A DNA stretch of 64,000 bases from contig CBDCSU010000006.1 in NCBI GenBank assembly GCA_965221775.1, forward strand, positions 1,856,001 through 1,920,000, read 5' to 3'. The position numbers were made by a program, and so were the translations under genes. This DNA comes from Candidatus Latescibacterota bacterium. GTDB lineage: Bacteria > Latescibacterota > UBA2968 > UBA8231. The first letter of the stretch is position 1. The number at the start of each line of letters is the position of its first letter. The notes beneath the pieces are model-generated. The model ran no database searches. It was not told the DNA's origin and saw only the letters and a program-made list of their open reading frames with translations. Shown here in pieces: positions 40,201-46,660 of this stretch.

Positions 40201-40641
40201 CTATGGAGCGGGTTCACCCTCGGCCGCCCGCATCAGGGCGACCAGGGCGTTGATCTCGGAGGCGGTGAGGACCACGCCGAAGGCGGGCATGCCGTCGGCT
40301 TCGAGGCCGTCGGCGACGGCCCGGAAGATGGCGGCGGTGCTGTCGCCGCAGGCCCAGCGGCCGTCGATCAGGCTGCTGGCCATGCCGCCGTCCATGCCGG
40401 CGCCGTGGCAGTCGGCGCAGTAGAAGGCGTAGTGGCCTCGGGCGGCCCCCGGCGCCGGCACGTCATCGGCCGGGGAAGGCAGGCTTCGGTAGCCGAGATA
40501 GCCCGCTCCCGCCAGCAGCAGGCTCCACAGAAGCACTCGCCGCATGGACAAGGCGCTCAGCGGGACCCGCGGCCCGGCCTCGGCCGTGCCGTGGGCCGAG
40601 GCTCTGGGCCCAGGCCCGGGGCGCGGCTCACGGGCCGTCAA
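40201..40641 (-). CDS. Monoheme c-type cytochrome
   Basis: TM/signal segment, CADCHG, distal GMPAF; start may be 40545. Confidence 0.88.
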   Translation of the reverse strand: MTAREPRPGPGPRASAHGTAEAGPRVPLSALSMRRVLLWSLLLAGAGYLGYRSLPSPADDVPAPGAARGHYAFYCADCHGAGMDGGMASSLIDGRWACGDSTAAIFRAVADGLEADGMPAFGVVLTASEINALVALMRAAEGEPAP

Positions 40642-41962
40642 CCACGTCGAAGCGCAGGAGGACGTCGTGTATGCAACGAGTGCCGAACTCGAGGCAGCGC
40701 GCCGGGACGCGCTCGTCGGCGGCGTGGATGAGCCGGAAGACCTCGATCTCTTCGGGCAGGTCCAGGGGGAGGAACCCGTAGGTCTGGATTCCCAGGCGGC
40801 GGAACTCGCGCCCGTCGGTGGCGCCCACCATGAGCATGGGCATGGGCCGCGCTTCCGGGTCGCGGTCCTTCAGTACCGCCTCGAGAAGAGGCAGCAGCCG
40901 CAGGTCGGGATCTCCCATGGGCTCGCCCAGGGCCCGGGGCGGGTCGAACTCGACGTCGTCGCCCACCAGCGCCTCCAGGTCGGAGACCAGTTTCTCCGGG
41001 CTGGAGTCGGGGAGGATGCGGGCGTCGAAGCCCAGTTCCACCGTGCTCGGGACGACGTTGAACTTCTCACCGGCGTCGATCACCGTCACGTTCACGGTGT
41101 CGTGAAGGATGCAGTCGAAGGCGTCGCCCTCGGATCCCATGCCGTCGAGGGTGGCATCCGTCCGCGCGGGGTCGAGGAGGGCGAGGACGGTGGCCGCTTG
41201 CGGCTCCGGCAGGCCCGCGGCCACGGCCTCGATCATCGCCGCCGCCGCGGGGGTCACGTTCACCGGCAGCCGGCGCCGGTCCAGGGTCGTGAGCACCCGG
41301 CCGAGGCGGGCCATGATCCCGCCCCGGTGGACCATGGCCCCGTGACCGCCGGGACCGCGCAGGCGGCCGGTGAGCCGGACCACCGTCTTCTCCGAAACCT
41401 GGATCGGATAGAAGGATCTGCCGAGGACCCGCTCCCGGTAGCCGCCGAACTCCCCGAGGGCAAAGCGGACCCCCGCGAATTCCCCGGGGTGCTGCTCGAC
41501 CATGAAGCGGGCGCCGTGCTCGGCCCCGGCTTCCTCGTCGGAGAGCAGGCAGAGGATGACGTCCCCGGGCAGGGGAGCGCGCTCGTGGGCGGCGCGCAGG
41601 AAGGCGGCGATCATCATCGCGTCGCCGCCCTTCATGTCGAGGGAACCGCGGCCCCAGATCACGCCCTCGGCGCGTTCGCCTGCGAAGGGGTCGCGGCTCC
41701 AGGGCTGGCCGCCGGTGGTGACGACATCGACGTGTCCGTAGAGGAGCAGCGGCGGCTCGGAGCCGCCGCCGATCCGGGCCACCAGGTTCGGGCGCTCGGG
41801 GTCGAGGGCGAAGAGCCGGGACTCGATGCCGTAGGCGGCGAGCAGGCCGGCCACCCACTCGATGCAGGGACGCTCGCGCCCCGGGGGGTTGGTGGTGTCG
41901 AAGCGAAGGAGGTGCTGCAGCAGCGCTCCGGGATCGGCGTGGAGGCCGCGCAGATCCTCCAT
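40628..41962 (-). CDS. M20/M25/M40 family metallopeptidase
   Basis: DTTNPPG.E, LYGHVDVV, WGRGSLDMKG, DEEAG, GHG, GATD, IHAADER. Confidence 0.93.
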   Translation of the reverse strand: MEDLRGLHADPGALLQHLLRFDTTNPPGRERPCIEWVAGLLAAYGIESRLFALDPERPNLVARIGGGSEPPLLLYGHVDVVTTGGQPWSRDPFAGERAEGVIWGRGSLDMKGGDAMMIAAFLRAAHERAPLPGDVILCLLSDEEAGAEHGARFMVEQHPGEFAGVRFALGEFGGYRERVLGRSFYPIQVSEKTVVRLTGRLRGPGGHGAMVHRGGIMARLGRVLTTLDRRRLPVNVTPAAAAMIEAVAAGLPEPQAATVLALLDPARTDATLDGMGSEGDAFDCILHDTVNVTVIDAGEKFNVVPSTVELGFDARILPDSSPEKLVSDLEALVGDDVEFDPPRALGEPMGDPDLRLLPLLEAVLKDRDPEARPMPMLMVGATDGREFRRLGIQTYGFLPLDLPEEIEVFRLIHAADERVPARCLEFGTRCIHDVLLRFDVVDGP

Positions 41963-41964
41963 GC

Positions 41965-42972
41965 TCAGGCGCAGAGTGGGTGCTCGGTCTGGGGCCGCCG
42001 GAAGGGGATGTCGATCTTGCCGCCCTGGTTGATCATCGACATGTTGGCGCGCGCCTCGAGCCAGGAGCGGTGCCAGGCCTCGGGATCGCGCAGCTCCGTC
42101 TCGGGGTTGGCGCGGCTGCGGGCGACGAAGCCGGGGAAGGCGGTGCGGCCGGTGGGCTCGTGGGTGGGGTTGTAGCGCAGGTCGAAGCTGAAGCGGACCT
42201 CGTCGCTGGTGTTGGAGAGCGAGCCGTGGACGGTCTGCTTGTGCATGAAGATGACCGCGCCCGGAGCCACGGGCAGAGCCCGCGAGTGCTCGGCGTCGAA
42301 GAGCTTCTCGGGGATCTGGGTGCTGCCGGCGGACTTGGGGCCGTTGCCCATGTAGTTGGGGCAGTGGGGCAGCAGGCCACTGCGGTGCGAGCCCGGCACG
42401 ACGTGGAGGGGCCCCTTCTCCATGGGAGTGTCCTCCAGCGAGAACCAGACGGTGAGCATGCGGGTCTCGTCGGCCTCCTCGGTGACCACGCCGTGGTCCT
42501 GGTGCCACTGGGTGGCCCCGAGGACGGGGTTGCCGTGGGCGTTGGTGGGCAGATGCTGCTCGGGCGGCTTGATGCGCACGTGCTGCACCGGGTTGGAGTA
42601 GATCTCGGAACCGATGAGAGACTCCACCGCGTCGAGGAGGTCCGCGTCGGTGAGGGCCCGGAAGACGGCGGGGCCGGCCCAGAAGGGAGTGTCGGGCTTG
42701 ACGTTCTGAAAGGGCAGGGAAAAGTCGAAGTACTGGCTGTGGACGGTACCGGTCTCGATGCAGATCCGGATGTAGCGGTCGCCGAAGTCGAGGTGCTCGT
42801 AGCGCGAGGGGATCTCGCCGCGTTCGTAGAGCTCGTCGGCGAGCCGGTCGAGGACCTCGGCGTACTCCTCGATCACCGGATCGAGGGTCTTCTCCGGGTC
42901 GATGACGTCATCGACGACGACGTAGCCCTGGTCTTCGAAGTGCTCGATCTGCTCGCGGGTGAGGGCGGGCAT
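41965..42972 (-). CDS. Phytanoyl-CoA dioxygenase (PhyH) family protein
   Basis: LTREQIEHFEDQGY, WHQD, VVPGSH, TVHGS..N, RFSFDLRY. Confidence 0.92.
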   Translation of the reverse strand: MPALTREQIEHFEDQGYVVVDDVIDPEKTLDPVIEEYAEVLDRLADELYERGEIPSRYEHLDFGDRYIRICIETGTVHSQYFDFSLPFQNVKPDTPFWAGPAVFRALTDADLLDAVESLIGSEIYSNPVQHVRIKPPEQHLPTNAHGNPVLGATQWHQDHGVVTEEADETRMLTVWFSLEDTPMEKGPLHVVPGSHRSGLLPHCPNYMGNGPKSAGSTQIPEKLFDAEHSRALPVAPGAVIFMHKQTVHGSLSNTSDEVRFSFDLRYNPTHEPTGRTAFPGFVARSRANPETELRDPEAWHRSWLEARANMSMINQGGKIDIPFRRPQTEHPLCA

Positions 42973-43036
42973 GGAATCCTCCGGGTGGTGACGTTCAAGG
43001 GGCGGTCTTCGGCAGCTAATGTACGCCCCCCGTGCT

Positions 43037-43249
43037 TCAGAAGAACATTTTGTAGAGCAGGCGCAGGTTGCGCAGGACGTGGACGCCGGGGGGCACGTTG
43101 GCGAAGAAGAAGTACCCCCCGGCGTCGCTGGTCCGGGCCCGGTCGAGGCCCTCGATGACCACGGTGGTCCAGCCCACGGCCTGGCCGCTCTCGTTGTCGA
43201 CTACGTGACCGGCCAGACCCAGCAGGAGCAGGAGAGTGGGGCGAGAGCC
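43037..43249 (-). pseudogene. Internally deleted TonB-dependent receptor remnant
   Basis: Start-less 70-codon frame: LLLLLGLAGHVVDNESGQAVGWTTVVIEGLDRARTSDAGGYFFFANVPPGVHVL (carboxypeptidase-regulatory-like N-domain) joined directly to RNLRLLYKMFF-stop (OM barrel last strand). Confidence 0.7.
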
Positions 43250-43783
43250 CTAGCCGTCGTCGTCGTGGTCGTCGTCCTCGTGGTCCTCGTCGTCATGGTC
43301 GTGTTCCTCGCCCGGACCGCCCTCCTCGACGTGGATCTCGATCTCCTTGGAGACGAAGTCGGCGTGCCCGCTGTGAAGGATCTTGAGGACGAGGGTGGTC
43401 TCCCCCTCTTCGAGGCCGACGATGTGGAAGGCCCAGGCGCCGTCCTCATCGTGCTGCTCCACATCGGCGATCGTGTCGTCGCCGATCTCCCAGCCGAGGG
43501 AGAAGCCTTCGTCGGCGTGGGGTTCGAAGAGGTCGCCGTCCTCGGCGATGAAGCGCACCGAGAGCAGGGGCGTCTCCCGGTCGTGGCCCACCTCGATGAC
43601 GCCCTCGACCTCGCCGTTCTCCTGGCGCACGATCTCCTCGCCGCTGCTGCGGATGACCAGACCGAACGCTTCGGCGTGTTCTTCGTCGTGGGGCTCGGGG
43701 TCGACGGGGTTGGCGTCGTCGCCGCACCCCGTCAGGAGGGGGAAGAGGAGAGCGACACTTAGAGCGGTGATGTTCCTGAGCAT
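43250..43783 (-). CDS. Lipoprotein with His/Asp/Glu-rich tail, likely metal-binding
   Basis: Lipobox LTGC; HDEEHAE, LHSGHADF, C-terminus EEHDHDDEDHEDDDHDDDG; GGAG RBS. Confidence 0.85.
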   Translation of the reverse strand: MLRNITALSVALLFPLLTGCGDDANPVDPEPHDEEHAEAFGLVIRSSGEEIVRQENGEVEGVIEVGHDRETPLLSVRFIAEDGDLFEPHADEGFSLGWEIGDDTIADVEQHDEDGAWAFHIVGLEEGETTLVLKILHSGHADFVSKEIEIHVEEGGPGEEHDHDDEDHEDDDHDDDG

Positions 43784-43911
43784 TGCGGGTTCTCCATTGG
43801 GTTGAGGAAGGGGACCGGCCCTTTGCCGTCTGGTCCCGGAGGTACGACAAGAGAGCGCATCCGCACCCGGCGGCAAACCGCCGGACGGATCACTGAATCA
43901 GGTGCGGATGC

Positions 43912-44223
43912 TCAGGAACGGGGAGGTGCGCGGGGGCCCTGCGTCGCCAGGTGGATGGCGCAGGGCGCGGAGACTTCGGGATGGCGGAGCGGGGTCTCCC
44001 GGAGCGGCGGCGCCAGGAGCAGCAGACCGAAGACGGCGAGGACGGCGAGGGCGAGGGCCGCCGAAAGGGCCGATACCGGGCACTGCTCGATCTCGAGCCG
44101 CCCGTCGTGGTGCAGGTGGTGCAGCAGGGGAAGGGACAGGGACAAGGACAGCACCAGCGCGGCCAGGGCCAGGATGCCGGCGCCGGGACCGTTGCGCTTC
44201 TGTCCGAAGAGGGAGGGTGCCAT
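43912..44223 (-). CDS. DUF2946-like small membrane protein ending in RAPP (putative regulatory uORF)
   Basis: TM helix - HHLHHD...CPVS - TM helix - ...QGPRAPPRS-stop; upstream of a lipoprotein and TBDR remnant. Confidence 0.72.
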   Translation of the reverse strand: MAPSLFGQKRNGPGAGILALAALVLSLSLSLPLLHHLHHDGRLEIEQCPVSALSAALALAVLAVFGLLLLAPPLRETPLRHPEVSAPCAIHLATQGPRAPPRS

Positions 44224-44363
44224 CGTGGTAGGAGTCACACCTGGTCCGTGTGAGCGTTCAGAACGCCCCTCCGGGAGGCTTCGCCTCGGACCGGAAGGCA
44301 GACCCGGAAAAATAGTGATTGCGGGTCCGGCCCGTCATCCCTCGGGCAGGTTCGACATGCGGA

Positions 44364-45515
44364 TCAGCCGGTGCACCGCCTCAGCCACCCGAGGTTGGGC
44401 CGGGGCATGATCCCGTAGTTGTAGTAGGAGAACTGCTCCACCCCTTGGCGCCGGGCCGCCTCCACCTGGGCCAGCAGCCCGTCGGCGTCGACGGCGCAGG
44501 GGTAGTAGGCCTGCAGGCCCACCACCAGACGCCGGAGATCGGGCACGGTCTCGCCCATGGCGGCCAGCCGCTGGGTGATCTTCTCCGGGGCGTCGACGTA
44601 GGCCAGGATCTCCACCAGGTCGGCGGTGGCGGCCATGCGCGCCGCGTCGATGCCGGCACCCCAGCGGTCGCCCATGAGCAGGAAGGAGACCTCGACGCCG
44701 GTGGCCCGCTGGACTTCTTCCACCAGCGAGACGACCAGGTCCTCGCGCAGGGCCTGGTAGGCCTGCAGCTCTGGATGGCCGGCGACGAGTTCCTCGGGGC
44801 TGCTCTCCAGGGGGCCGCCGCCGGCGAAGACCCCGTCGAGCTGGCCGCGCACCCAGCGCTGCAGACCCTCGCCGTCGATCCCCCGCTCGCGCGCCCGGTC
44901 CAGGCAGCCGGGGGAGAAGCTCAGGCTGAAGAGGTAGCGCCCGGCGGCGCCCAGGTTCACCCCGTCCTTGACGTGGTAGTGGGCGTGGCCGTACCCGCCG
45001 AAGGCGCAGGACTCGAGCTCCAGGCGGCGGACCTGGTAGTTGAGGACGAGGTCGCGGCACAGGGCGATCAGGTAGGCGCGCACATCCGGCTCGCCCGGGC
45101 ACAGGGACCAGCCGGGATTGTCTCCGTAGGCGGTCCGTTCGGCGCACCGGGGGTAGTTCACGGCCAGATCGGTGTTGTGCAGGCCCACGGTCCACGAGAT
45201 CAGGTCGAGCCCCTCGCGCTGGCAGGCCCCGGCCAGGCGGGCGAGGGGATTGGCTTGGCGCGCCAGGGGGGCCACCTGCGGGCGCAGCACGGTATCGTGG
45301 TAGAGGGCGGGATCGGGCTGGAAGTAGAGGGCGGCGGTGTTAGCGGTCAGCAGCTTGGCGCCGGGGCGCTGCGGGCGCAGCTGCTGGAAGGTGTGATACG
45401 CCGTGGCGACGCTGATGGCGTCGAGGCCCAGTTCCTGGCGGAGGTAGCGGACGGAGTCCTCGATGCCGTCGTCGACCAGGTCCCACAAGTAGGACCAGAG
45501 GGTGTGGCAGGCCAT
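44364..45515 (-). CDS. Putative glycoside hydrolase-like TIM-barrel protein
   Basis: SYLWDL.D.G, A..YH, W.V.LHN, LCP..P.VRAYL, LELES, YYNYG; function inferred only. Confidence 0.6.
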   Translation of the reverse strand: MACHTLWSYLWDLVDDGIEDSVRYLRQELGLDAISVATAYHTFQQLRPQRPGAKLLTANTAALYFQPDPALYHDTVLRPQVAPLARQANPLARLAGACQREGLDLISWTVGLHNTDLAVNYPRCAERTAYGDNPGWSLCPGEPDVRAYLIALCRDLVLNYQVRRLELESCAFGGYGHAHYHVKDGVNLGAAGRYLFSLSFSPGCLDRARERGIDGEGLQRWVRGQLDGVFAGGGPLESSPEELVAGHPELQAYQALREDLVVSLVEEVQRATGVEVSFLLMGDRWGAGIDAARMAATADLVEILAYVDAPEKITQRLAAMGETVPDLRRLVVGLQAYYPCAVDADGLLAQVEAARRQGVEQFSYYNYGIMPRPNLGWLRRCTG

Positions 45516-46660
45516 CAGAAGGCCCGGCTGAAGCGGGCGAAGTAGCGCCAGCCGCTCCGCGGGCCGTCCAGGGGCCGCGCCAGGCCGATGCGGAACTCCT
45601 CGTCGAGACGAGCGGCGAAGCCCAGGCTTCTCCGGAAGCGCGCCTCTTGCTCCGGCTCGGGGCCTCCCCGCTCCAGGGCCCGGCGGGCGCCCTCGGGGGA
45701 ATACCAGGCGGCCCCCGTGTCCAGCAGGACCCCCACGCCCTCGACCCAGTACTCGATGTTGAGCAGGACCATCCGGTCGCCGGAGAACGCCTTGTGCGGG
45801 TAGCCGCGCAGGGTGGCGAAACCCCCGAGGTGGTAGAGGTACTGGCGGGGCAGTTCGCCGGAGCCGCGGCCCAGGCGCAGGCGCAGGTCCAGCTCGTTGT
45901 CGCCGTGGTGCAGGTAGCGCCGGGCGTCGAGCAGGTAGCGGCGAAAGGCGAAGTCGCCGCCGAGACGGCCCCCGCCGCGCTCGACCATGCCGTCGACCCG
46001 CCACTTCCGGCCCGACCACCACGGGAACTCCGGGCCCTTCGCCTGCACGTCGAGACGCAGGCTGTAGGCCCGGCCTTCGTCGGCGGCGGGGTTGTCGTTG
46101 AAGGTCTCGCGCGCCAGCCGCGTGCGCAGCGGGTGCCAGCGCCCCAGGTGCCAGTCCACGGGGCTCCAGTTCGACCGGGACTCGAGGGAGAAGAACTCGT
46201 CCCGCTTCCAGCGGCCCGTCACCTGCACCTGGCCGTCGAGGTGGTAGCGGGAGTAGAGGCTCCATCCCCGGCGCTGGTAGTAGTCGAAGTAGTCGCGGCG
46301 GAAGAGGGCGGCGTAGACCGAGTTCTCCTCGGGAGTCAGCAGCCAGGAGTCCTGGGACTCGATCCGGTCGTGCAGCTCGGCGCCGAGACTTTCTCGTCTT
46401 TGGGGCGAGTCCCGCAGGAAGAACTCCTCGAGGCCCACCTGGTACTGCCATTGGCGGGCGCCGAAGGCATAGCCCAGATGGCCGTAGCCGGCCGAGCCGC
46501 GGCCGGTGGCGGCGGGGTAGGCGAGGTCCTTGCGGGCGCCCAGGTAGATCCCCTCGACCCGGTTGAAGCGCAGCTCCCCCTCCTCCGCGGCGTGCACTTC
46601 GGGTGCGGCGGCCAGGCCGGCCACCAGCATGATTCGCCAGCAGGCGTTGATTCTGCTCAT
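45515..46660 (-). CDS. BamA/TamA-like outer-membrane beta-barrel protein
   Basis: Signal peptide, RFNRVEG, LGGFATLRGY...FSGDR, C-terminal RFSRAF; GGAGGT RBS. Confidence 0.75.
   Translation of the reverse strand: MSRINACWRIMLVAGLAAAPEVHAAEEGELRFNRVEGIYLGARKDLAYPAATGRGSAGYGHLGYAFGARQWQYQVGLEEFFLRDSPQRRESLGAELHDRIESQDSWLLTPEENSVYAALFRRDYFDYYQRRGWSLYSRYHLDGQVQVTGRWKRDEFFSLESRSNWSPVDWHLGRWHPLRTRLARETFNDNPAADEGRAYSLRLDVQAKGPEFPWWSGRKWRVDGMVERGGGRLGGDFAFRRYLLDARRYLHHGDNELDLRLRLGRGSGELPRQYLYHLGGFATLRGYPHKAFSGDRMVLLNIEYWVEGVGVLLDTGAAWYSPEGARRALERGGPEPEQEARFRRSLGFAARLDEEFRIGLARPLDGPRSGWRYFARFSRAF

Follow-up and report, generated by a model that had tools for sequence, protein, structure and literature searches.

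A stretch of 64,000 nucleotides (nt) from a Candidatus Latescibacterota bacterium (contig CBDCSU010000006.1, positions 1,856,001 to 1,920,000; referred to here as the window, with coordinates counted from its first base) contains on its minus strand, at positions 43912 to 44223, a small open reading frame (ORF) that precedes a lipoprotein gene and the remnant of a TonB-dependent receptor gene. This upstream ORF (uORF) is probably a regulatory leader of the CruR/CutF (DUF2946) kind, that is, a nascent chain inserted into the membrane during translation and arresting the ribosome that makes it at R98-A99-P100|P101. Comparison with related sequences supports it as a conserved gene in which an RAPP-type end, a pair of histidines and one cysteine are under selection. 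In the messenger RNA (mRNA), the end of the ORF can pair with the start site of the next gene (P1, found in several sequence versions), so that this site would become accessible while a ribosome is held at RAPP, and this lends weight to the proposal of an earlier note on this DNA that the ORF is a ribosome-arrest leader.

The leader gene consists of 103 codons and a stop codon, with an ATG start at 44223-44221 and a TGA stop at 43914-43912, and encodes the peptide MAPSLFGQKRNGPGAGILALAALVLSLSLSLPLLHHLHHDGRLEIEQCPVSALSAALALAVLAVFGLLLLAPPLRETPLRHPEVSAPCAIHLATQGPRAPPRS. An alternative GTG start is present at 44238, and Met1 is invariant in the alignment of relatives (A5). The description in the earlier note of a 103-amino acid (aa) ORF at these coordinates, with two hydrophobic helices, an intervening HHLHH...CPVS and QGPRAPPRS as the C-terminal nine residues, was found to hold, with the strand being minus. 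Hydrophobic blocks were located by 19-residue Kyte-Doolittle windows above 1.6, which start at residues 11-19 and 45-59, and the AlphaFold2 (AF2) model, built from a 125-sequence alignment, has helices at residues 13-39 and 49-70 and an unstructured region at residues 71-103 (mean pLDDT 68.5). Helix 1 (44107..44187; Kyte-Doolittle peak 2.31) is preceded by K9 and R10 and carries the HHLHH cluster at its end; it is a putative N-in transmembrane (TM) segment as judged by AF2 and Kyte-Doolittle. The segment between the helices reads H35-H-L-H-H39-D-G-R-L-E-I-E-Q-C48-P-V-S. Conservation in relatives marks H35-x-x-x-H39 (44107..44121) as candidate metal ligands, and in alignments C48-P49-V50-S51 (44071..44082) is the counterpart of the DUF2946 CXXC, with Ser replacing the second Cys. 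Helix 2 (44014..44079; Kyte-Doolittle peak 2.69) is a putative second TM segment and is followed by a 33-residue tail (residues 71-103, 43915..44013) that is variable in sequence and constant in length. The tail contains the predicted arrest site, R98-A99-P100-P101, encoded by CGC GCA CCT CCC (43921..43932) and recognized by its conservation. By analogy to the toeprint of CruR (PMC12992588), the ribosome is predicted to stall with Pro100 in its P site and Pro101 in its A site. Direct searches with the peptide gave no Pfam or NCBIfam assignment, and a match to CbtB at E 3.8 is meaningless.

A terminal RAPP alone is weak evidence because it is frequent by chance in a GC-rich genome, and conservation in relatives therefore carries the case. 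The genome has a G+C content of 69.8 %, and among its 42,245 stop-to-stop frames of at least 60 aa, 108 have RAPP and 97 have RGPP within the last 12 residues (scrambled control motifs, 84-206). A word-indexed search returned 18 close homologues of the leader that are 57-99 % identical to it; 18 of the 19 aligned close sequences end in RAPP followed by 2-7 residues, the exception (P0019) ending out of frame. An exhaustive search of 1.84 billion representatives with a profile of the close homologues (A1) gave 10 matches at E≤0.001, of which eight are about 100 residues long, about 30-55 % identical to the leader, and have the same plan and the RAPP end. One of the other matches (P0029) was rejected as a repeat-protein false positive, and P0028 is without the motif. 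A second profile, made from 20 diverse members, gave 138 matches.

In the pooled set of relatives, R-[A/G/P/S]-P-P lies close to the C-terminus in 124 of 130 sequences (RGPP 79, RAPP 39, RPPP 4, RSPP 2), and tails are truncated or shifted in the remaining six. R[AG]PP occurs in 118 relatives, and 110 of them end exactly two residues after it. H35, C48, R98, P100 and P101 are invariant in the 125-sequence alignment, in which mean column identity is 32 %, and L31, P32, H39, P49 and A99 are at least 90 % conserved. HxxxH is present in 122 of 124 relatives, so that both the RAPP-type motif and the His cluster, which the earlier note had asked to be compared among homologues, prove to be conserved. 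The fourth residue of C-x-x-X varies among the same 124 relatives (Y 42, C 33, H 21, S 18, R 4, G 3, others 3). The spacing from C-x-x-X to Arg is 46 intervening residues in the window peptide and in 111 of the 124, and the alignments are near gap-free from Cys48 to Arg98, a stretch that is free in sequence and fixed in number. The codons of the arrest motif vary synonymously among loci (CGC/CGA/AGG; GCA/GCC/GCG; CCU/CCG/CCA/CCC), and selection is therefore on the peptide and not on the RNA. A chance, GC-driven frame was rejected as an explanation of the leader on the grounds of this conservation with synonymous change.

The relationship to DUF2946 (PF11162) is supported transitively, via CxxC-bearing intermediates, as one of sequence homology to CruR-type leaders. 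At E≤1, 37 of 125 leader relatives match DUF2946, and two CxxC/RGPP relatives, P0122 (25.7 bits) and P0120 (23.7 bits), reach the Pfam gathering cut-off of 23.7 bits over positions 3-117, the whole model; both are found by the family profile at E 1e-16 to 1e-17. Alignment of the window clade (A1) with the CxxC/RGPP clade (A7) using hhalign gave 96.3 % probability and E 2e-9 over 49 columns. According to Roy et al., the traits of the family are a CXXC motif, an RAPP motif three residues before the end, and 45 intervening residues, within 1-2 residues, among more than 2000 DUF2946 proteins (PMC9426467), the first two of which agree with the background given in the earlier note. The TM-CxxC-TM-RAPP architecture that the note ascribed to CruR differs from this source, which gives a signal peptide or one N-terminal TM segment. 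The leader shares the terminal RAPP, followed by R-S-stop, and a Cys-to-RAPP spacing of 46 compared with 45 ± 1-2, and it is the first gene of a metal-homeostasis-type operon with a long intergenic distance. An increase of the CruR spacing by five residues abolishes regulation, and the second Cys of CruR, mutated jointly with the first, is needed for the copper (Cu) response (PMC9426467).

The end of the leader gene is predicted to pair with the start of the lipoprotein gene. The window mRNA between the terminal codons of the uORF and the start of the lipoprotein gene folds with a minimum free energy (MFE) of -66 kcal/mol (z -2.67), and both the RNAfold MFE and centroid structures contain P1, a helix of 12 perfect pairs. 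Its 5' arm, GUUCCUGAGCAU (43908..43919, minus strand, read from 43919 to 43908), comprises the final 2 nt of the Arg102 codon, the Ser103 codon, the stop codon and 4 nt more, and its 3' arm, AUGCUCAGGAAC (43772..43783, minus strand, read from 43783 to 43772), comprises the lipoprotein start codon and the next three codons. The window duplex (locus L005) has an energy of -22.2 kcal/mol, and none of 300 shuffles was as good. When Pro100 occupies the P site, the first base of the P-site codon lies 7 nt ahead of the 5' arm. A stalled ribosome covers about 12-15 nt past the P site. The 5' arm is thus inside the footprint of an RAPP-stalled ribosome, which must therefore keep P1 open. The window accordingly has the arrangement of SecM, MifM and CutF, namely a helix hiding the downstream Shine-Dalgarno (SD) sequence or AUG, with one arm in the footprint of the stalled ribosome. 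A second element, the hairpin P2 (43857..43911, minus strand), begins right after the stop codon and has the form GCAUCCGCACC ... GGUGCGGAUGC with an inner CCGGCGG-UUUG-CCGCCGG stem.

Pairing of the P1 type was compared among homologous loci. At most four of 300 shuffled tails were as good as the natural tail in 11 of 17 loci. In a set of 41 non-redundant tail/initiation-region pairs, derived from 52 uORF instances, 30 had at most two of 200 shuffles as good and 37 at most 10 of 200. The sequences that form P1 over the SD and/or AUG are of six or more different kinds. The window-type pairing, UCCUGAGCAU::AUGCUCAGGA, is shared by L011, L013 and L019, although peptide identity is only about 30-35 % there, and the same three loci also conserve the sequence GCAUCCGC 3' of the stop codon. 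The RGPP clade uses GGUGCUAGU::ACUAGCACC between the SD and the AUG, L024 uses GUAGUCUUCUGAAUA::UAUUCAGGAGACUAU over the SD, and L012 has CUCCGUCU::AGACGGAG. Further versions occur in L010, L015 and L054, and the L025 type also pairs with the SD and/or AUG. Changes on both sides of a helix were seen in L048, where GGUGC/GCACC is replaced by GGCGC/GCGCC, and in L025, where P2 covaries as GCAUCCACGC/GCGUGGGUGC.

These features can be assembled into a proposed mechanism. As read from the sequence and the AF2 model, helix 1 would direct the chain to the membrane N-in, the HxxxH...C-P loop would become periplasmic and helix 2 would follow. By analogy to RAPP stallers, the Pro100-Pro101 peptide bond would fail to form and the ribosome would pause three codons ahead of the stop codon; RAPP arrest of CruR in vitro, with Pro-tRNA in the P and A sites, has been reported, as has an enrichment of RAPP/RGPP uORFs 5' of TonB receptors (PMC12992588). 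The paused ribosome would occupy the 5' arm of P1, the 12-bp helix that in the sequence otherwise masks the lipoprotein AUG 128 nt downstream. While the ribosome is held, the start site would be free and the lipoprotein would be translated, together with the abutting receptor in intact operons, and when the ribosome terminates and departs, P1 would re-form and the operon would be shut. The length of the pause may be set by metal at His35, His39 and Cys48, and this trio at the hairpin turn is most likely the sensor. With Pro100 in the P site, the exit tunnel would be filled by the 33-residue tail and helix 2 (22 residues) would cross the membrane or translocon, which would place Cys48 at the outer face, and metal-dependent closure of the hairpin could pull on the nascent chain and release the arrest. 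The fixed 46-residue ruler fits such a mechanical coupling of the sensor to the arrest site. Since the operon is one for uptake, the expected logic would be ON when metal is scarce and OFF when it is plentiful.

The leader family was found in 73 of 168 genomes of the phylum, including 49 of 75 in family f1, 19 of 31 in f2, 3 of 13 in f10 and 1 of 22 in f4, and in none of the other ten families sampled. Relatives carry the public names Candidatus Latescibacteria/Latescibacterota or are from metagenome-assembled genomes of Gemmatimonadota, and all are labelled as hypothetical proteins. The sequencing runs holding the stretch are labelled sponge metagenome or marine metagenome (eight studies), and the source organism appears to be sponge- or marine-associated. 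The order uORF, lipoprotein, TonB-dependent receptor recurs in ten loci of families f1, f2 and f10 (L001-L003, L021, L022, L056-L060), so the downstream receptor synteny that had been proposed as a check on the leader is indeed seen. In L017 and L018 the receptor directly follows the uORF, in L020 it is displaced by about 5 kb, in L019 the leader and lipoprotein have no receptor next to them, and in L061 (f4) the uORF is followed by a 525-aa frame without assignment and a TonB receptor, with no lipoprotein recognized. Gaps from the uORF to the next gene are 112-293 nt (median 138), and the 128 nt measured in the window, with the lipoprotein ATG at 43783, refines the earlier figure of about 130 nt.

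Several genomes contain more than one leader. A diverged paralogous leader in the organism's own genome (G000:C6:624018-624305; L017 1495-1794) reads HHLDDCG...CPIS...SSRAPPPS and is followed by two intact TonB-dependent receptor genes of 741 and 799 aa (downstream to L017 6629). Genome G007 has three coexisting leader paralogues with CPVS, CPIS and CPVC. Tandem uORF-lipoprotein repeats are found in genus g14 (L056 511-4971 and L057 412-4778), in the order CPAY leader and lipoprotein, CPAC leader, second lipoprotein (L057) and one receptor, and in family f2 two complete leader-lipoprotein-receptor modules lie in tandem (L058, L059) with CxVC, R[A/S]PP leaders. These arrays look like duplication with divergence of the sensor motif.

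The lipoprotein gene (43250..43783, minus strand) has 177 codons and a stop codon and encodes a protein with a lipobox Cys20, an immunoglobulin (Ig)-like beta-sandwich and an acidic, His-containing C-terminal tail (alignment A4, AF2). Its SD sequence, GGAG (43792..43795, minus strand), lies 8 nt ahead of the ATG, and GGAG(A) is at an equal distance from the start in homologous loci. His36, His120, His137 and His140 are invariant in alignment A4. The AF2 model is all-beta (pLDDT 82). No Pfam or NCBIfam family was found for the protein, and the ESM Atlas gave unnamed clusters only, with Big_2 at 0.81 as a lead. Foldseek searches against the PDB gave generic Ig/Big_2-like matches only (9hcj_10, nuclear pore, E 2.8e-4; SbsC 4uid_B, E 7.7e-4; the lambda tail-tube Ig domain) and no metal-binding fold such as YcnI, PCuAC or ZinT.

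The presence of a TonB-receptor remnant, claimed in the earlier note, was confirmed at 43037..43249 (minus strand) by blastn comparison with the intact orthologue in L001. The remnant consists of an N-terminal CarboxypepD_reg piece, for which the domain match is weak, fused in frame to the last 10 codons. Compared with L001, 1,953 nt are missing in frame, with a 9-nt microhomology at 43061-43069, and a further 36 nt are deleted in the signal-peptide region. The intact orthologue has 734 aa with CarboxypepD_reg, Plug and barrel domains, and in L001 the receptor gene abuts the lipoprotein stop codon, 3 nt apart. Contigs from three sequencing runs, each of a different study and one of them an RNA library (X1 record 1, X4 record 14, X17 record 9), span the deletion junction, X1 possibly being the source sample of the assembly, and the deletion is therefore real in the population. 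An assembly artefact was rejected as its cause because of these bridging contigs. The best NCBIfam match of the receptor is ZnuD at 150 bits, which against a cut-off of 950 does not make it an equivalog, and haem receptors come next. Its nearest solved structures are ZnuD of Neisseria (4RDR, E 3.4e-31) and OprC of Pseudomonas (6FOM, E 1.3e-14), both of which are TonB receptors for ionic metal. The receptors examined have 0-1 Cys and 30-34 His, and the single Cys of the L001 receptor is inside the signal peptide; the L003 receptor also has one Cys. OprC has a CxxxM-HxM site (PMC11836926), whereas the receptors of L002 and L017 are Cys-free and are therefore unable to form this copper site.

Single contigs from RNA libraries run from the lipoprotein start across the spacer into the uORF (X20 record 13, 43550-44052; X17 record 10, 43754-44256). 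In both RNA-library runs, which are from one study, one base is inserted right after the uORF stop codon (43911/43912), within the 5' arm of P1, and is accompanied by several spacer substitutions. The insertion is a strain variant and would bulge P1. The RNA contigs of X17 end at 44256, where DNA contigs continue; a transcription start at this position was not adopted, since contigs are uninformative about ends and the two RNA runs come from the same study. There is no RNA-library cover over 42800-42998, and this was not interpreted.

Reading by eye of the 170 nt 5' of the uORF in 17 loci revealed no operator common to them, for example of the Zur or Fur box type. A 13-nt palindrome lies at 44254-44266 and is missing from L001. 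On the leader's strand, a scan for promoters and terminators detected neither a sigma-70-like promoter nor a terminator. Upstream of the leader, a minus-strand gene at 44364-45422 encodes 352 aa (MACHTLW...), belongs to no Pfam family, is syntenic in L002 and ends about 140 nt ahead of the leader ATG. Beyond the receptor, a PhyH-type dioxygenase gene (41965-42972, minus strand; Pfam E 8.4e-21) and a peptidase-like gene recognized by eye (40628-42508, minus strand) hold the same position in L001-L003, and may belong to the same transcription unit or neighbourhood as the leader operon. Between 40500 and 49000 the window has many long overlapping ORFs on the opposite strand or in other frames (e.g. 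43019-43762 and 44319-45545, both on the plus strand), which are commonplace at a G+C content of about 70 % and do not represent genes.

Several points weigh against interpreting the ORF as an arrest leader that gates the lipoprotein start. The DUF2946 profile search proposed in the earlier note, which succeeded for CxxC relatives, gave no match for the window leader itself even at E≤10, and PF11162 was above its cut-off in none of 151 genomes of the phylum. The leader has C48-P-V-S51 in place of the DUF2946 CXXC, which is present in 33 of 124 relatives, and so is without the second Cys. Of the 52 uORF instances considered for P1, 11 could not be included, since automatic assignment gave them no downstream start. 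The shuffles were of mononucleotides, and with many of the loci closely related to each other the counts suggest more independence than there is. Pairing is poor or missing in the paralogue L017 (68/300 and 55/200), in L016 (157/300), in L014, where the start is ambiguous (234/300), in L012 (28/300), in L048 (25/200) and in L052 (21/200). The RNA-library contigs are compatible with co-transcription of leader and lipoprotein, and are not proof of transcription or of a single transcript. As the receptor is deleted in this strain, the switch may here be a relic. For the leader family as a whole we infer stalling, the metal response and the function of P1.

The same arrest peptide could alternatively act on transcription, as CruR does, with the stalled ribosome blocking Rho or a terminator-like post-stop hairpin and its release ending transcription; we regard this as rather unlikely, and it could be combined with P1 instead of replacing it. 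CruR, the characterized homologue ahead of a TonB receptor, acts via Rho across a spacer of 162 nt (PMC9426467), the spacers of the present family are similarly long (112-293 nt), and a conserved G-poor stretch, UCCCCUUCCUCAACCCAAU, lies ahead of the SD. A further point on this side, and one that counts against control of the start site, is that C exceeds G in the spacer of most loci, with a C/G ratio of at least 1.18 in 12 of 17. For a terminator, there is the stable hairpin immediately 3' of the leader stop codon; the scan, however, found no intrinsic terminator on the leader's strand. The spacer is predicted to be heavily base-paired, unlike typical rut sites, and the conserved, covarying pairing of the uORF end with the SD/AUG would be superfluous for transcriptional control.

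It is less probable still, and in our judgement improbable, that the product of the ORF is a stable inner-membrane protein with two helices that takes part in uptake, perhaps as a partner that binds metal or as an assembly factor, and in which R-x-P-P is a structural or interaction motif. Both helices and the His2Cys site are conserved, the gene travels with the lipoprotein and receptor, and a terminal RAPP is frequent by chance in a GC-rich genome, all of which speak for a stable protein. The tail from helix 2 to RAPP, however, is constant in length and free in sequence, a better fit to a spacer that spans the tunnel than to a folded domain, and 110 of 118 relatives have exactly two residues after the motif. 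The end of the uORF also pairs with the next start site in several sequence versions, and RAPP and RGPP reportedly stall ribosomes strongly and are avoided in proteomes (PMC12992588).

That the module of this strain is a functionless evolutionary relic, with the receptor deleted and the leader and lipoprotein decaying, is suggested by the 1,953-nt and 36-nt deletions and the recurrence of their junction in three runs of three studies, and is nevertheless very improbable, in that neither the uORF nor the lipoprotein frame is broken and both are 84-99 % identical to their counterparts in relatives with whole operons, P1 is perfect, the stretch is present in RNA-library contigs, and the L019 leader and lipoprotein are likewise without an adjacent receptor, so that the pair may work with a receptor encoded elsewhere, e.g. 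at the paralogous locus L017.

A regulatory arrest leader thus being the preferred reading, the identity of the metal it would sense can be considered. The earlier note had argued from the single Cys and the His cluster that the metal may differ from that of CruR, and this argument is weakened by the family pattern: the fourth position of C-x-x-X varies (Y/C/H/S) ahead of the same operon, which suggests that the second Cys is dispensable in the clade rather than being a specificity switch. Zinc (Zn) is weakly favoured over Cu by the nearest relatives of the receptor (ZnuD), by the lack of Cys in the receptor and by the His/Asp-rich lipoprotein. For Cu, every characterized relative senses this metal, and a His2Cys set also suits it. 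A more specific proposal can be offered only tentatively and is itself doubtful: the leaders may form a distinct, unannotated branch of the DUF2946 superfamily, in which a two-helix hairpin with a periplasmic His2-Cys site would bind a non-copper metal, most plausibly zinc. Closure or insertion of the hairpin in response to metal would act through a taut 33-residue tether on the RAPP/RGPP arrest, and would thereby gate translation of a 'piracy' module of lipoprotein and ZnuD-like receptor. If so, paralogues that share a genome (C-x-x-S, C-x-x-C, C-x-x-Y/H) would differ in the metal or in the threshold to which they respond.

CruR (Bp2923 of Bordetella pertussis, the prototype of PF11162; PMC9426467) shares with the leader its place as the small first gene of a TonB-dependent receptor operon, an N-terminal export or TM segment (putative in the leader), a long spacer to the next gene, and a Cys metal motif at a fixed distance (45 compared with 46 residues) from R-A-P-P, which is followed by 2-3 residues and the stop codon. 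It differs in having 145 residues compared with 103, CXXC in place of C-P-V-S, and a proteobacterial host in place of a Latescibacterota-like phylum. The leader, unlike CruR, has an invariant HxxxH, a second hydrophobic helix after the Cys and an unclassified lipoprotein as the next gene, and while the output of CruR is Rho-dependent termination (PMC9426467), the conserved RNA feature of the leader masks a start site. CutF of Rhodobacter capsulatus, also a DUF2946 protein, is similar to the mechanism proposed for the leader in its periplasmic-side metal sensing and in the proposal that a stalled exported nascent chain melts mRNA structure over the next ribosome-binding site (PMC9973294; 10.1101/2025.02.05.636593), in this case a stem-loop covering the cutO SD (10.1101/2025.02.05.636593). 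CutF has a cleavable signal peptide, a CxxxC motif and an EF-P-dependent PPP motif, whereas the leader has RAPP and a putative two-helix hairpin sensor, and CutF turns on a detoxifying oxidase at high Cu, whereas the target of the leader is an uptake operon.

The pairs SecM/secA, MifM/yidC2 and VemP/secDF likewise have a C-terminal arrest motif (RAGP in SecM) and a stalled ribosome that opens a helix over the initiation region, with release by pulling force during membrane insertion or export (PMC9973294; PMC10987492). They monitor the secretion or insertion machinery that they regulate, whereas the targets of the leader are an Ig-like lipoprotein and an outer-membrane receptor, and its conserved His and Cys residues point to a ligand. 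Of the same kind are the RAPP/RGPP uORFs surveyed ahead of TonB receptors, YcnI, PCuAC and PepSY (EMBO J 2025, PMC12992588), which share the C-terminal motif, a localization signal and a metal-related next gene. Their TonB-related class is called universal in Gram-negative bacteria and nearly all of its members have signal peptides (PMC12992588), whereas the leader looks like a two-TM hairpin and has the lipoprotein first. The words Gemmatimonad, Latescibacter, lipoprotein and zinc are absent from the main text of that paper, supplements apart. The principle of the arrest leader and its enrichment 5' of TonB receptors are already in print (PMC9426467; PMC12992588). What is new is an unannotated clade, mostly under the Pfam threshold, in a Latescibacterota-like phylum, with an HxxxH...C-P hairpin, a lipoprotein partner and a start-codon-masking helix.

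To our knowledge, CruR and CutF are the only metal-sensing arrest peptides studied at the bench, both of them proteobacterial and both responding to copper. The leader family would extend this recently recognized form of regulation to an uncultured sponge- and marine-associated phylum, in which it is present in close to half of the genomes sampled. Within the family the second Cys of the 'hallmark' CXXC appears dispensable and the HxxxH pair does not, and the leader is tied to a His-rich lipoprotein, a new partner for a ZnuD-like receptor. The DUF2946 model merits widening, and leader genes of about 100 codons merit calling in genome annotation. The 46-residue ruler, the two-helix hairpin and the 12-bp start-codon helix together provide a testable geometry, which could address how the binding of a ligand outside the ribosome becomes the release of an arrest within it.

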